A stretch of 30,949 nt of DNA from a virus. Under the pieces are notes generated by a model that searched no databases, had not been told where the DNA came from, and worked only from the letters and a program-made list of their open reading frames with translations. Location of the stretch: the UHGV virus genome UHGV-1530050; one strand, given 5' to 3'. This document shows positions 20,815 to 29,394 of the stretch, piece by piece; the stretch's first letter is position 1, and each line of letters starts with the position of its first letter. The position numbers and the translations under genes were made by a program.

Positions 20815-21819
20815 ATGGGCGCGGAGATTAATATTTTGGAAACTGATTTTAAAATAACCCTCGAAGGTTTCGCTACTGAGCAAGAAGCAAATAATATCGG
20901 TAATTTCACACTAGAAGCTATCCGAGCTTTAACAAAAAATCTCAATCTTGATATCTCCAAATTAAAATGCGTGATTGTTTCCTATAACTTCAGTGAAGCT
21001 CTTCAAAAGGTAACATCCTCTTACCAACACAAATCCCCTAGTTCATTTACCAATAGCAAACAGGGCGCAGCCGTCGGGCAGTTAGTAACAAAAATTGGCA
21101 ATGATGGGCTATGTGAAGAATATACCCTTGTGCTATCGATTGATTTTTTTGTTGAGCTTTTCAATGATGCTGGCTTCTTAAAACTGAAAGAAGAAGGATA
21201 CCTCGCAGTCATCCATCGCATTCACCATGAATTAGTGCACGTACATGAAAAAAACTTACTAACATGCTTAGCCCAAAACTTTACAGTCAACGAGTATGGT
21301 AGCGCGCTTCTTATCTCAGCCACGCGTGCATGGTCTGAATATCTCGCTAATTACATGTCTTCGGGGTCTGCCCCTCAAGAAACTATCGATTTATTTTTAG
21401 AGAATCTTGACACTGTTGTAAATGAAGTATCTGACGAAATTGAAAAACTCATCTGGGGTTATAAGTACGGTAATATTTCTCTGAATGACATGTATCTCGA
21501 AGTAAAAAAACGTATCAGGCTAATCATCAACTCTTATGCTTATGCGATGGGTTATGTCCATTCTCTAAACATCAATATTAAAGAATACGATCCAAAGCTA
21601 TCCCTTACACTATCCAACTCAAAGATAAGATATCAATTATCAGAATTAGGCATTGCTTTTCAGAATCTTTATGGGAAGTTTAATGACCAGCACATTACAG
21701 GTTTTGGTGATTTTCGGGAGATAACAATAATCATTGATGAAATATTCAAGCAGTTTGGGCTTGTTTTAGAGTGTCCCGATTGGTCTGGCGACGGTGAACT
21801 CTACATACATGTAAATTAG
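20815..21819 (+). CDS. Hypothetical protein with HExxH (HELVH) motif; AT-rich cargo gene between portal Q and cos
   Basis: 334 aa ORF with much lower GC than the backbone; ...VIHRIHHELVHVHEKN... contains a candidate zinc-metallopeptidase HExxH motif; RBS weak. Confidence 0.55.
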   Translation: MGAEINILETDFKITLEGFATEQEANNIGNFTLEAIRALTKNLNLDISKLKCVIVSYNFSEALQKVTSSYQHKSPSSFTNSKQGAAVGQLVTKIGNDGLCEEYTLVLSIDFFVELFNDAGFLKLKEEGYLAVIHRIHHELVHVHEKNLLTCLAQNFTVNEYGSALLISATRAWSEYLANYMSSGSAPQETIDLFLENLDTVVNEVSDEIEKLIWGYKYGNISLNDMYLEVKKRIRLIINSYAYAMGYVHSLNINIKEYDPKLSLTLSNSKIRYQLSELGIAFQNLYGKFNDQHITGFGDFREITIIIDEIFKQFGLVLECPDWSGDGELYIHVN

Positions 21820-22038: not shown

Positions 22039-22057
22039 ATGCTTTCCCCGCCACGCC
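22039..22057 (-). other. cos site (19-nt cohesive end, 186-type)
   Basis: The reverse complement of 22039..22057 reads GGCGTGGCGGGGAAAGCAT, matching the 19-nt cohesive end of phage 186 as I recall it (P2 differs at 2 positions); lies between Q and A as expected. Confidence 0.6.
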
Positions 22058-22293: not shown

Positions 22294-23235
22294 ATGCAAG
22301 GTGAAGTTGACGAACAGCAACCCAATGAGATTATGTCGGAGTTTGGATACTATCCAGTAGAAGTTAACATTGAGACTGAACAATTTTCTTTGCTTACTTT
22401 ACCTGGTCTCAATGAGAAAGTGGAGCGTGTTAACAATGATAAAAACGTTGTGAAAGGTTGGATATACCCTGGAAACCAAGATGTATATAACCTTAATGGT
22501 GGTATATCCACAATGCCTTATAGTCACCGAGTATTCAGTATGCCCAAAACGCACACACTAAAATTAAAAAATACATCCTCGTTAGAAACTCTCAACTTTA
22601 TTGTGTGGTGCCTTTCTTTTTTCAAGGGAATAAGATTGACAACCACTGACGCTGGTTTTTTAGATGCAACCACTATCAAGCCCACTAAGTTAACCGACTT
22701 TATTCTCGTTGGATGCTCTGAAAAAGAAGTCATAGAACTGGCTCTTAATTATATAAATGGCAAACATAAGGATGCGCACTCCCCCAAAAGAATTGCGGCA
22801 GTGGTGCATGCACTATTCTTATCTCAAAACCCACAATACCTTTCTTTTGAAAAATTCCAGTACCTTTACATGGCACTTGATGGGTGCTTTGCTTTGTCGT
22901 GGGCTGAGCATGACAAGGCTCCTGATAAAAAACCGCCAAATCATTACAAGCGATTAAAGTGGATGTGCAAAATTTATGGGTTATCAATCCCCACATGGGT
23001 GTCAGGTAAAAAAAACATTTCTGGCATCCGCAATGATAATTTTCATGAGGCTATTTTTTTTGGTCAACCGCTTGGTTTCTCAAGTGTTAATAACAGTCAA
23101 TATGGTAACGATATATTGCTGCAAATGCAGGCACTGGTATGTCGCCTATTAGCGGCAATACTGTCGGTTAATGATTGCAGTTATCTCAAATCTTCGGTCA
23201 ACTCACGAGATTACCATTCATTAAAAATAAATTAA
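22294..23235 (+). CDS. Hypothetical protein; AT-rich cargo gene in the cos-proximal Q/A slot (P2 tin/old position)
   Basis: 313 aa ORF with a strong GGAG RBS 8 nt upstream; low GC; convergent with replication gene A as P2 old/tin are. Confidence 0.6.
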   Translation: MQGEVDEQQPNEIMSEFGYYPVEVNIETEQFSLLTLPGLNEKVERVNNDKNVVKGWIYPGNQDVYNLNGGISTMPYSHRVFSMPKTHTLKLKNTSSLETLNFIVWCLSFFKGIRLTTTDAGFLDATTIKPTKLTDFILVGCSEKEVIELALNYINGKHKDAHSPKRIAAVVHALFLSQNPQYLSFEKFQYLYMALDGCFALSWAEHDKAPDKKPPNHYKRLKWMCKIYGLSIPTWVSGKKNISGIRNDNFHEAIFFGQPLGFSSVNNSQYGNDILLQMQALVCRLLAAILSVNDCSYLKSSVNSRDYHSLKIN

Positions 23236-23309: not shown

Positions 23310-23519
23310 CTATCGTCGACGTGGTGGTGGTGCGTATTGTTTCGACCTGCTGATGCTATCCAGCTTGCCGTAATTATCCCTGACTATTTCGGCACACCCG
23401 ACCAGCTCTGCGGGTGTCAAATTCTCATTGACCATTATCTGCTGCAAACGATGAACGATGGCCATCAGTTTGATGCTTTTAGTTTTGTGCTGCGGTATTT
23501 CACCTGGTAGTCGATGCAT
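23310..23519 (-). CDS. Small hypothetical ORF (69 aa)
   Basis: ORF only; uncertain start; located downstream of the dinI-like gene. Confidence 0.3.
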   Translation of the reverse strand: MHRLPGEIPQHKTKSIKLMAIVHRLQQIMVNENLTPAELVGCAEIVRDNYGKLDSISRSKQYAPPPRRR

Positions 23520-23718
23520 ATTATCACCCTCAATGAATTTTAATCAGTGCCGTCAAAACGCCACTATAAAACCATCTCAGGTCATGCCTCATTAATCATG
23601 GGCGTGTCATCAATAGCACATTGAGAAATTTTGAAAGGCAGGACTTAAGCCTCGTGGGCTAGTTACTCAACCCCGCCGACGCAAAAAGCTAGTTTTTGCG
23701 CCAGCACGGTTATTATGT

Positions 23719-23949
23719 TTAACGCCAGCTATCGTCTTCCCAAATCTCTTGTAATATGCTGCCTAATGTTTCTCTGTCCGCCTCTTTATCGAATCCGATA
23801 GCCTCTACACCAGTCATTGACCCTTTCTTAACGTTAACTTTTGTTGCAGGAAAAACGCATTGTACTCGATGTGTTATTTCATTCTGAAAAGCATCAATGA
23901 TCTGTTGCCCTAATTTTTGCTCTTTATCCAACGTGATATTGATTCTCAT
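23719..23949 (-). CDS. DinI-like damage-inducible protein domain (possible Tum-like antirepressor C-terminal part)
   Basis: 76 aa; MRINITLDK...RVQCVFPA...ILQEIWEDDSW resembles the DinI family; in the same frame as the upstream 60-aa ORF, separated by a single TAG. Confidence 0.7.
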   Translation of the reverse strand: MRINITLDKEQKLGQQIIDAFQNEITHRVQCVFPATKVNVKKGSMTGVEAIGFDKEADRETLGSILQEIWEDDSWR

Positions 23950-23952
23950 AAT

Positions 23953-24135
23953 CTAATCAGCCTTATAAAAATTATCATCTTCGGTTTCGTTATTTTCGCT
24001 GTTTGCTAGGTCTGCAATGAGAGTGAGCGCGAGCTTTAAGTCTGATGGCTTGCAGTTTGCAATCAGAGATACCTCGGCAATAAATTGCACACAAGCCCAC
24101 TTTTGCTGCGTTCGGCTGAAATGTTCGCCAACCAT
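23953..24135 (-). CDS. Small SOS-regulated ORF (60 aa), possible N-terminal part of a Tum-like antirepressor
   Basis: GGGAGGG RBS; near-consensus LexA box 20-40 bp upstream; in frame with the dinI-like ORF across one amber codon. Confidence 0.5.
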   Translation of the reverse strand: MVGEHFSRTQQKWACVQFIAEVSLIANCKPSDLKLALTLIADLANSENNETEDDNFYKAD

Positions 24136-24154
24136 GAAATCCCTCCCATAGGGT

Positions 24155-24174
24155 TACTGTATATTTATACAGTA
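24155..24174 (-). promoter_or_regulatory. LexA box (SOS operator)
   Basis: TACTGTATATTTATACAGTA is a CTGT-N8-ACAG palindrome matching the E. coli LexA consensus TACTGTATATATATACAGTA at 19/20; overlaps a candidate TTGCCA -35 on the - strand. Confidence 0.8.
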
Positions 24175-24248
24175 GCACGTATTGGCAAAAGATGGGAAGA
24201 AAAAAAACGAATAGAGCGATTGCTGTATGTGCATGATATGGATATGAA

Positions 24249-26471
24249 TTACTCATGTATTGGTTTTGATGCTTCAGCCATCGCCGCAACACGATTAAGG
24301 ATTTTCCGAGCTTTAGCCTCATGCGATGGTGCTGCGGAAAATATTTCTCCTTTGGCCGTTCCGCGTAGCCATTTACCATCAAAACAACTTTTACCACCGG
24401 CCATCAGGTGCAGGGCTTCGCCCCGGCTGATATTAATGCCGGTTGTCAGATGTATTTCGTCGATAGTTTTAGCTATAGCTGCGTTTTGCTCATCCGTTCC
24501 GTGGATGAATTTTCGCCGTGCTGCTGGCTTTTGCTTCCTGAGTCGGTTGGTCAATTCTCGTCTTTCACGCCGACTCAGTGGTTTTGTTAAATCCAGTATC
24601 GGTGGATCGCTTTCGCTTCCCGTACAGTTATTGACAGAACTCCGAGGGACGGCTTTGCCGTCCTGAAGGTCAACGGCCAAATCAACAGCACGCTTCGGAA
24701 CAATCTTCCACTGAGTGAGCCGGGTTAAAATCGGACTCCCTGCACCTATGGAGGAATCGTAGACTCCCTTAATACATACCGTTTCCTCACCGTACTGATT
24801 AAGCTCGGTACGCGGTTCATACAGTGTGCGCACCTGTAAATCATCGCGACGGACAAACGGCCCACCCTGAGCATTAACATAACCAGCCCAGTCACCAGCG
24901 TCGGCGGCATCATGGACGGCGGCAAACTCAACGCTCAGTCCGTGCGCGGTTTCGGTATCAGCGAGGCGACGCAACTCACGGTAAACCGTCACCGGCGCAC
25001 CACCGATAAACTGAAACTGACGGATGTGCCAGCGCGCAGCCCATGCTGAAACGGCGGGGGCTGTCTCTTTCAGTAGCTCACCGCTTTCATCATCGGTTTC
25101 ACCATCGAGAGCATAACCGTCGATATTTTTTGAAATGTATTTAGCAACATAGCCGGTTGCGCTGCCTTTCTCCGGGTCAATGGACTCGGCGTGGAAACGT
25201 GCTTTTTTGGATTTATCGCTTTTCAGTTCGTGGCGGTCTTCTTTCCATGCGTATTTACGGACGATGGAGCGAACATATTCAACATCTTCCGGCAGCATGA
25301 ACATCAGCATGTGCCAGTGTGGAGTGCCGTCGTGATGAGGCTCGGCGACACGAATACCGAAAATACGGACATCTTCCCGATGTAGTTTGGCACGGATACG
25401 CGCCCAGATACCGGTTAGATAGTTTTGCGTGTCAGCCGGGCTGGCACCGCTCCATTTGCTGTTACGGTAACCGGCTTTAGTCGTGGCGTGATATTTTGAC
25501 GGCGCGGTTAGAGTGTAAAACTCACCGACATAACCGAGCTCATTACAGATGTTTTCAAACCCACGAATGCGGGTCATGAGCTCACAGCGGCGAATCGCAG
25601 GGTTAGCAACTGAGCCATCATATTTTTCAATCAGGCTGATACGGTTGCCGTCTTCGTCTTCGAGATCCAGACCTTTGAGAAATTCACGAGTGCGGCGCTT
25701 TTGTTCACGCCAGTCAGTCACGCAGTTTTTACTCGCGTAAGTGTTTTTTTTCTTACTGACGTTGCCGACTGCAATTTGCAGGTGTTCGCGCCACGTAGCT
25801 GCAACACGGCGCAAACGACCGCGCCACCACCCATCGTTAAACATTTTGGCGATAGCCGGTGCGATTTCATCCGCACCGACATATTTTTTTTCAACCCGCT
25901 CCCAATGTGGTGGGATAACGTTAAATTGGAGGGAAATAAAGCCAGCACGAATATACCAGGTGTACAGCGTTTTAAGCTCGCCGAATCCGTGGTCATTAAT
26001 GTTGGCAAGTTCACCACGAATGAAATTAGCAATATCAGCGGCCAACAGGTCAACATCAGCGCGCGACATATCCGGGAGACGGTTATATCGGGCGACCATA
26101 TTAACCATGCGTGACGACAGATATTGCATTTGCTGAGTATCAAAATGACTTCCAAAAACAGCGGTTGATACCTTGCTGTTGATACCAGCGCATTCGTATT
26201 TTTTTGCGACCAGTTCAAGACGCGGCAATGCCTTTTTGCAGAAGTTGATTAAAAATGCATTGGCTCGTTGACTACCCTGATTTTGCTCCAGCACCGCAGC
26301 AGTGCGATAAACATCTAACCGCACGCAGTCGGGCTGGAGAGAAAGCACCTTTTTTGCATGCAGCAAAGCCGCGAACATACGGTCGCGGCGATGCTGTTGC
26401 TCATAAGTAAGGTATGGGCTGGAGATTGCCGACCGTGGGACGTTCCACGGATAAGCGAATTGAACAGCCAA
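24249..26471 (-). CDS. A: Replication initiation protein A (rolling-circle endonuclease)
   Basis: 740 aa; P2/186 gpA-like (HHDGTPHWHMLMF region); last gene of the early operon. Confidence 0.9.
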   Translation of the reverse strand: MAVQFAYPWNVPRSAISSPYLTYEQQHRRDRMFAALLHAKKVLSLQPDCVRLDVYRTAAVLEQNQGSQRANAFLINFCKKALPRLELVAKKYECAGINSKVSTAVFGSHFDTQQMQYLSSRMVNMVARYNRLPDMSRADVDLLAADIANFIRGELANINDHGFGELKTLYTWYIRAGFISLQFNVIPPHWERVEKKYVGADEIAPAIAKMFNDGWWRGRLRRVAATWREHLQIAVGNVSKKKNTYASKNCVTDWREQKRRTREFLKGLDLEDEDGNRISLIEKYDGSVANPAIRRCELMTRIRGFENICNELGYVGEFYTLTAPSKYHATTKAGYRNSKWSGASPADTQNYLTGIWARIRAKLHREDVRIFGIRVAEPHHDGTPHWHMLMFMLPEDVEYVRSIVRKYAWKEDRHELKSDKSKKARFHAESIDPEKGSATGYVAKYISKNIDGYALDGETDDESGELLKETAPAVSAWAARWHIRQFQFIGGAPVTVYRELRRLADTETAHGLSVEFAAVHDAADAGDWAGYVNAQGGPFVRRDDLQVRTLYEPRTELNQYGEETVCIKGVYDSSIGAGSPILTRLTQWKIVPKRAVDLAVDLQDGKAVPRSSVNNCTGSESDPPILDLTKPLSRRERRELTNRLRKQKPAARRKFIHGTDEQNAAIAKTIDEIHLTTGINISRGEALHLMAGGKSCFDGKWLRGTAKGEIFSAAPSHEAKARKILNRVAAMAEASKPIHE

Positions 26472-28533: not shown

Positions 28534-29394
28534 ATGAGTTCTGAGCTTGATGTTCAGTGGCGTGTTAGTGCAACGAACGGCGTATTGGAACGCTTAATGT
28601 CAGCCTATGGGGTCAAGATGCAAAAGGATTTGGCTGACCTGCTAGGTATCGCTAAACACAGCGTTAGCGGCTGGGTTCAGCGTGATGCAATACCTGGCAA
28701 TGTCATAGTTAGGTGTTGTCTTGACACGGGAGCTGATATCAATTGGCTTGTAAATGGAGAGCTTGCAAATGCAAATCACGAGCGAGTCAGTTGCAAGTTA
28801 AAAGGCAAAGAGCTTTATGACGAGATTATGACGAATGGTGGTAAAACCGTTTTGCGTAGGATTCTTGATGCGTATGGCTTTACCATGCAAAAGGAGCTCG
28901 GTGATTTGCTCGGCATTTCCTCTGGCACAATTAGCACATGGGTAAGGCGAGATTTTTTCCCTGGTGATGTTGTTGTTACATGCGCTCTTGATACCGATAC
29001 GTCACTGGAATGGTTAGCAACAGGCAAGGGGCAAATGCGAGCTAACAGGGAAGATGTCACATCTGGTTTTTCTATTAAAAAATCTCGTCTTGAATCTGGT
29101 GAGCTTAAGGATGCAGGAACGTGGCATCCTGACCCCTCAATGATTCCTTCTAACTCAGGGGAATTGATTTTTGTTGACGGTGTAGCTGCCTCTTGGCTTG
29201 TCGACTGTTCTGCTTCGAATATAAGTAATGGTCGCTGGTTAATTGATATCGACGGCGCTCTTGATGTTTTTGATGTAATTCGTTTACCTGGTGGAAAAGT
29301 CAGGTTGTCAAATAAGTCTGCTGAGTTTGAATGCAACATTACCGACATTACGCCTGCCGGGGTTGTAGTTTTCACATTGGAAAAACACGTATAA
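28534..29394 (+). CDS. cI: CI-type immunity repressor with tandem-duplicated N-terminal HTH domains
   Basis: 286 aa; residues ~14-75 and ~103-165 are clear paralogous copies (LERLMSAYGVKMQKDLADLLGIAKHSVSGWVQRD... vs LRRILDAYGFTMQKELGDLLGISSGTISTWVRRD...), resembling the 186 CI-type HTH domain; AGGGG RBS. Confidence 0.8.
   Translation: MSSELDVQWRVSATNGVLERLMSAYGVKMQKDLADLLGIAKHSVSGWVQRDAIPGNVIVRCCLDTGADINWLVNGELANANHERVSCKLKGKELYDEIMTNGGKTVLRRILDAYGFTMQKELGDLLGISSGTISTWVRRDFFPGDVVVTCALDTDTSLEWLATGKGQMRANREDVTSGFSIKKSRLESGELKDAGTWHPDPSMIPSNSGELIFVDGVAASWLVDCSASNISNGRWLIDIDGALDVFDVIRLPGGKVRLSNKSAEFECNITDITPAGVVVFTLEKHV

Follow-up and report, generated by a model that had tools for sequence, protein, structure and literature searches.

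The region from 23,719 to 24,174 of the virus genome UHGV-1530050 very probably carries the SOS induction operon of a PSP3/186-type (Eganvirus) prophage, intact and in the form with two genes, tumA-tumB. Judged by comparison with homologous loci, the TAG codon between both reading frames is simply the stop codon of tumA, a gene in its own right that naturally ends at this conserved place. The stretch of DNA that was analysed as a whole (30,949 nt, referred to as the window) is a P2-like, 186/PSP3-type prophage that is essentially complete, with terminase, portal, and integrase genes, a perfect 186-type cos core at 22040-22057, a CII homologue (PF06892), and a Cox/Apl-like ORF. The tum locus is situated directly downstream of the replication gene A (24249-26471, minus strand; Phage_GPA, E 2e-130), and the same slot after gene A is occupied by the LexA-repressed p95 promoter and tum in phage 186. 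The following elements were assigned to the locus and to its presumed target:

24193..24198, minus strand: -35 hexamer TTCCCA of a putative p95-type SOS promoter, assigned by homology to the 186 annotation
24155-24174, no strand assigned: LexA operator (SOS box) TACTGTATATTTATACAGTA, agreeing with the consensus TACTGTATATATATACAGTA at 19 of 20 positions
24140..24147, minus strand: Shine-Dalgarno sequence GGGAGGGA of tumA, read from the sequence, 4 nt before the ATG and identical in PSP3
23953..24135, minus strand: tumA, encoding a predicted antirepressor of 60 aa (ATG at 24135, TAG 23955..23953 included)
23719..23949, minus strand: tumB, encoding a DinI-family protein of 76 aa (ATG 23949..23947, TAA 23721..23719)
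23668..23712, minus strand: strong RNA hairpin directly after tumB (dG -26.9 kcal/mol, z -4.3, no shuffle as stable)
23310..23519, minus strand: ORF of 69 aa, homologue of PSP3 orf37 (PHROG 11386, unknown function)
28534..29394, plus strand: cI, immunity repressor of 286 aa with Phage_CI_repr (two copies) and Phage_CI_C (PF07022/PF16452)

Read on the minus strand, the operator is TACTGTATAAATATACAGTA (24174..24155), followed by 7 nt and the Shine-Dalgarno sequence of tumA. A scan of the 30.9-kb window allowing up to three mismatches returned this LexA box as the sole match, and no match was obtained in 100 shuffles. The box occupies the position of the LexA site annotated in 186, and a CTG-N10-CAG box is located 17-23 nt upstream of the tumA ATG in 104 out of 105 related loci. 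The hexamer TTCCCA aligns with the annotated p95 -35 element of 186 (TTCACA), with an 18-nt spacer to TACTGT in both sequences; TACTGT (24174..24169, minus strand) constitutes bases 1-6 of the LexA box and is the -10 element annotated in 186. Along an alignment of the window, 186, and PSP3, the promoter region is conserved nearly base for base. The p95-type promoter was not called by a generic sigma-70 scan of the sequence and is placed by the alignment to the 186 annotation.

The last codons of tumA are GAT-TAG, to which ATT (23952..23950) and the ATG of tumB (23949..23947) are attached. Thus, tumA and tumB share one frame, and a read-through product would comprise 138 aa. TumA belongs to PHROG 1993 and is identical to TumA of PSP3 at 59 out of 60 residues; searches with Pfam and PADLOC returned nothing for TumA or the adjacent cargo ORFs. 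Its AlphaFold model suggests, at moderate confidence (pLDDT 69), a hairpin of two helices and an acidic, disordered tail. The tumB product matches the Pfam DinI family (PF06183) with 63.9 bits (cut-off 24.2, E 1.7e-17) over profile positions 2-62 of 63, and is a member of PHROG 189 (RecA filament binding protein DinI). With residues 71-146 of 186 Tum, which correspond to the separately translated Tum95.5, it shares 70% identity, but with TumB of PSP3 only 47%. TumB resembles E. coli DinI in that the family match extends over the whole length; unlike E. coli DinI, it is phage-borne and co-transcribed with the antirepressor gene, and it is a predicted RecA binder. An initial annotation of this DNA, which had described a LexA-controlled Tum/DinI-like frame interrupted by an in-frame amber codon, was accurate with regard to the near-perfect operator upstream of the 60-aa ORF, the common frame across TAG-ATT-ATG, and the likeness of the downstream ORF to the C-terminus of 186 Tum. 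Its assignment to a LexA-controlled Tum locus of a 186-like prophage is borne out as well by the aligned p95/LexA site and the place after gene A.

The distribution of both modules over two genes is an ordinary and already known architecture, as evident from the PSP3 annotation and from the literature. Tum resembles an antirepressor fused to DinI, and in PSP3 and Fels-2 a stop codon divides tum into an upstream antirepressor gene and a downstream gene for a DinI homologue (Lemire, Figueroa-Bossi & Bossi 2011, PMC3121763). In the PSP3 record (AY135486), tumA (AAN08399) is described as "similar to 5' end 186 tum; UV induction of prophage" and tumB (AAN08400) as "similar to dinI and 3' end of 186 tum". 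Lemire et al. 2011 (PMC3121763) attribute an antirepressor activity to PSP3 TumA on the basis of a personal communication, and PSP3 is among the UV-inducible tum-carrying P2-like phages (Lavigne et al. 2009). The junction GATTAGATTATGAGA (TAG-ATT-ATG) is identical in PSP3 and the window, with the tumB ATG 3 nt past the stop of a 60-aa tumA, and both have in common the site after gene A, the promoter, the LexA box, the Shine-Dalgarno sequence, CI, and the downstream orf37. Differences concern TumB, which in the window is a 186-like allele with a switch of similarity approximately 40 nt into tumB, and the cargo beyond orf37.

Phage 186 (U32222) likewise carries a LexA-repressed p95-type promoter at the same genome position, an N-terminal antirepressor module that is a distant homologue of TumA, a C-terminal DinI-like module with the aforementioned 70% identity, and a terminator annotation (t95a) at the place of the hairpin. 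According to Shearwin 1998, as referred to in PMC3121763, 186 Tum binds CI, prevents its operator binding, and is needed for UV induction. In contrast to the two ORFs of the window, 186 Tum is encoded by one ORF of 146 aa with a 12-codon linker that contains an internal SD-GTG; furthermore, orf97 of 186 is absent from the window. The 186 record lists Tum95.5 as a protein of 76 aa with its own GTG start and GGAGG that "modulates SOS induction", and this protein is the residue-for-residue counterpart of TumB. Since Tum95.5 is initiated separately, the DinI part is an independent protein even in a phage with a fused tum. Due to the fact that the TAG at 23953-23955 parts the modules and a stop at this place is conserved in all TumA homologues, the locus is to be regarded as the PSP3-type split variant and not as the fused form of 186. 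The dinI-gfoA/gftA loci of Gifsy-1/2/3 (Salmonella; PMC3121763), compared here by description, are also LexA-controlled and combine a small antirepressor with a separate DinI homologue. Unlike in the window, dinI comes first, and the antirepressors and repressors are those of unrelated lambdoid prophages.

A single-sequence BLASTP comparison of TumA with 186 Tum gave no alignment. By means of hhalign, a TumA profile (30 sequences) was matched to a profile of the 186-type N-terminal domain (26 sequences) over 33 columns, TumA 16-48 and Tum 14-46 (84.6%, E 6.8e-6), and a MAFFT alignment yielded the common core V-x-x-I-A-x7-C-x5-x-A-L-x-L-I-A-[DE]-[IL]-A. Tblastn with 186 Tum as a query crosses the stop in PSP3-type phages (residues 14-146). 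Considering the profile match and the fact that promoter, operator, and genome position are identical, homology of TumA to Tum residues ~1-70 is well supported though distant; given the negative BLASTP result, it relies on the 33-column profile match and on synteny. Such a distance is what co-evolution of each antirepressor with its cognate CI would produce, and the N-terminal modules of 186 and the window go along with differing CI types (192 aa with one HTH in 186, compared to 286 aa). The 186-type N-terminal domain also occurs as stand-alone "Tum protein" genes of 63-73 aa, so the modules are separable in both lineages.

CI of the window is presumed to be the target of TumA. It is identical to PSP3 CI at 280 out of 286 residues (98%), and since TumA is almost identical as well, the cognate pair of repressor and antirepressor looks intact at the level of sequence. 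Besides, CI contains a tandem pair of Phage_CI_repr HTH domains at residues ~14-75 and 103-165, alike by eye, in front of the CI C-terminal domain. This duplication is also present in PSP3 CI, and no comment on it was found in the sources examined.

A homologue search with the 60-aa TumA identified 208 sequences, the best 120 of which all end at the same position. Among these best 120, 106 have a length of 59-63 aa, the longer ones without exception owe their extra length to an N-terminal over-extension across the LexA box ("LLYKYTV..."), and a fusion to a DinI domain occurs in none of the 120. They span approximately 12 enterobacterial genera, i.e., Escherichia, Salmonella, Klebsiella, Citrobacter, Cronobacter, Enterobacter, Yokenella, Kluyvera, Pluralibacter, Atlantibacter, Kosakonia, and Buttiauxella, and some are already named TumA in UniRef. 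Two loci with enterobacterial-type tumA, L009 and L012, come from assemblies that bear the labels "Bacillota bacterium" (a MAG contig of 1 kb) and "Chryseobacterium sp."; probably these labels reflect contamination or mis-binning of public assemblies.

Nei-Gojobori estimates of dN/dS ranged from 0.007 to 0.1 for tumA (the misaligned row of the 59-aa variant L026 was left out) and from 0.01 to 0.3 for tumB; compared to L008, tumA shows 19 synonymous and 1 nonsynonymous differences. Both ORFs are thus under strong purifying selection. These data bear on the alternative that a nonsense mutation broke a fused gene and that SOS inducibility was lost. A fused form of 146 aa does exist in 186 and about 40 phage records, and the in-frame layout suggests that split and fused forms are one simple event apart. 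Nevertheless, loss of function by such a mutation is highly improbable: the stop is of ancient origin and retained in genera with saturated synonymous sites, the tumB start and the tumA stop are both maintained, and seven isolated, viable phages (PSP3, SEN1, SW9, SI22, Midge, RCIP0057, and 613R3) contain this tumA in the same arrangement, of which PSP3 is reported to be UV-inducible.

The whole segment was found at an identity of at least 97.8% in 27 of 5426 complete E. coli genomes, and at least tumA in 81. In every full-length E. coli genome among the matches listed, RefSeq annotates two genes and no pseudogene flag, which also speaks against inactivation. Some of the listed E. coli matches show 100% identity, and identical sequence occurs moreover in phages 613R3 and PSP3 and in dozens of IMG/VR contigs. 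Due to this recurrence in many independent assemblies, a false stop produced by sequencing or assembly error, for which the initial annotation had advised checking the reads, is excluded for all practical purposes.

To describe the stop codon and the junction in related loci, 105 loci were compiled from 25 species-representative genome loci and 80 IMG/VR contigs (L004-L028, L030-L109). TumA has 59-66 aa and ends at the same position in all of them, with TAG in 79, TAA in 19, and TGA in 7 cases. The stop is polymorphic even inside clusters of 90% nucleotide identity, the cluster of the window itself comprising 50 loci with TAG and 4 with TAA. Following tumA, tumB is present in 55 loci and absent from 50. 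For 51 of the 55 tumB-bearing loci, TAG, 3 nt, and ATG are arranged in frame, the spacer codon being ATT, TTT, GTT, or ATC. Exceptions are given by L016 with the junction TAA-GCG-ATG, L024 with TAGATATG and an out-of-frame tumB, and L028 with a 17-nt spacer that carries its own Shine-Dalgarno sequence and an out-of-frame tumB. Four independent tumB-bearing junction types can be distinguished, two of which use TAA (L016, L028) and two of which are out of frame (L024, L028).

In case of L016 (1687-1907, an Atlantibacter MAG), tumB seems to be frameshifted, as two tblastn pieces lie in different frames; either this is an error of the MAG assembly, or a decaying tumB is situated beside an intact tumA. 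At L026 (1690-2080; Escherichia sp. ESNIH1), dinI after tumA is replaced by an ORF of 129 aa with the UmuD-like motif "GFPSPAQDY", and other loci lacking tumB contain different small genes or nothing after tumA. Due to the varied genes found in place of tumB, the slot after the antirepressor gene in this LexA-controlled operon is regarded as variable.

Against this background, programmed or leaky read-through of the amber codon was considered, by which some ribosomes would produce a 138-aa TumA-X-Ile-TumB fusion resembling 186 Tum and aiding induction. Both ORFs are in frame with one codon between them, the in-frame arrangement is kept in nearly all tumB-bearing loci, tumA ends in TAG more often than expected, and 186 provides a natural fused form. 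Since the 51 in-frame loci are closely related (TumA at least 93% identical), they amount to roughly one event and are compatible with shared descent. Furthermore, the identity of the stop varies at the same position, also in the cluster of the window, two of the four junction types use TAA and two are out of frame, and tumB is missing entirely from half of the loci. The window contains no tRNA genes and consequently no phage suppressor tRNA, and a search against Rfam gave only a snoRNA match at chance level. Since 186 makes its DinI part from an internal start, a fusion is not needed for this purpose either. A joint conservation of stop identity and in-frame downstream ORF, as expected for read-through, was not observed among the homologues, and read-through is therefore considered very unlikely. 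The same low probability is assigned to a variant confined to the PSP3 clade, in which low-level UAG read-through would yield a third, 138-aa TumA-TumB product like 186 Tum that tunes the induction threshold. If this were true, the high share of TAG would reflect selection for read-through or RF1-dependent termination-reinitiation.

TAG accounts for 75% of the loci and 48 of 66 unique sequences, and is the majority stop in approximately 13 of 24 clusters at 90% identity. TAG is the rarest stop codon in E. coli, and its share in tumA is far above general E. coli usage. Phylogenetic inertia or selection, e.g., on coupling, may account for this excess; since the loci share ancestry and differ in their stop codon even within clusters, selection for TAG is not claimed.

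Taken together, the ends of the homologues, the junction survey, and the dN/dS values exclude a recent inactivation and argue against an amber-specific requirement, which leaves TAG as the regular stop of tumA. Consequently, the notion of an interrupted frame is not supported, nor is there a sense codon at the TAG position in any of the 105 loci, where the initial annotation had proposed to look for one. Out of its three options, the splitting of tum into two products agrees with PSP3 tumA/tumB, whereas amber suppression is not supported by the survey, and inactivation is contradicted by the survey and dN/dS. The arrangement which it had named as speaking against an interruption, two independent genes with the same stop in homologous prophages, is indeed that of PSP3 (PMC3121763), and the possibility of a sequencing error is dispelled by the identical segment in independent complete E. 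coli genomes and phages.

With regard to translation of tumB, an AAGG motif inside the end of tumA, 11 nt before the tumB ATG, represents a weak and distant Shine-Dalgarno sequence. The motif [AG]AGG is found in the last 12 nt of tumA in 27 of 28 unique junctions with tumB and in 17 of 38 without, a suggestive bias among non-independent loci that fits a Shine-Dalgarno-aided translation of tumB. Since this sequence is weak and distant and the start codon is located 3 nt after the tumA stop, tumB is most likely translated via termination-reinitiation coupling at UAG-AUU-AUG, helped by the upstream AAGG.

A terminator-like call overlaps the hairpin at 23668..23712, and 186 is annotated with the partial terminator t95a directly after tum. 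As the hairpin has no clear U-tract, we infer its function as a terminator from its t95a-like position. PSP3 gp37 and a hypothetical protein of 613R3 occupy the same place as the 69-aa ORF, which could belong to the SOS operon as its distal gene. This ORF is situated 3' of the hairpin on the same strand and may be SOS-regulated by read-through of the hairpin, similar to orf97 in 186.

The window combines a PSP3-type tumA with a 186-like tumB allele that is common to the 27 E. coli genomes, and the same tumA occurs with either tumB allele in E. coli genomes. Where similarity to E. coli genomes is lost, the break lies either approximately 40 nt inside tumB (query 1-291) or right at the junction (query 1-248/254). 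This pairing is ordinary phage mosaicism, and the mosaicism of the tumB allele is further evidence for tumA and tumB being independent modules. The first ~40 nt of the DinI module (23910-23949, minus strand; ATGAGAATCAATATCACGTTGGATAAAGA.CAAAAA; protein MRINITLDKEQK) are almost invariant between 186, PSP3, and the window, in contrast to the rest of tumB (47% amino-acid identity), and coincide with the breakpoint of allele exchange. This stretch may represent a recombination patch or a constrained translation-initiation region.

Two large ORFs flank cos, at 22294-23235 (plus strand, 313 aa) and 20815-21819 (plus strand, 334 aa). Neither has a Pfam or PADLOC match, and both were assigned only to PHROGs of "unknown function" (5937, 11743). 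The site of the 313-aa ORF, at which E. coli D3 contains different genes, corresponds to the place of orf97 in 186 and of old/tin in P2, a known hotspot of anti-phage cargo. Both ORFs are candidate cargo or defence genes.

Assuming that the operon functions by analogy with 186, for which LexA control and antirepression are documented, and with the upstream gene of PSP3, LexA would keep it switched off in the lysogen by binding to the operator that overlaps the -10 element of the p95-type promoter. Upon DNA damage, activated RecA would promote the self-cleavage of LexA and thereby release the tumA-tumB transcript, which possibly runs partly past the hairpin into the orf37 homologue. TumA, a small and presumably helical protein, would then bind the PSP3-type CI and prevent its operator binding, thereby activating the lytic promoter and inducing the prophage. 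TumB, made separately by reinitiation, would act as a DinI-type binder of RecA filaments that modulates the SOS signal, as a counterpart of Tum95.5 of 186.

The prophage is therefore predicted to be SOS-inducible through an antirepressor and not through cleavage of its repressor, as in 186 and PSP3. In more general terms, the Tum antirepressor and DinI modules are separable, as they occur fused (186), adjacent in or out of frame, or with DinI missing, and they recombine independently. Beyond correct annotation the finding matters little; since TumA-type proteins are mostly annotated as "hypothetical protein", naming tumA would improve predictions of prophage inducibility.
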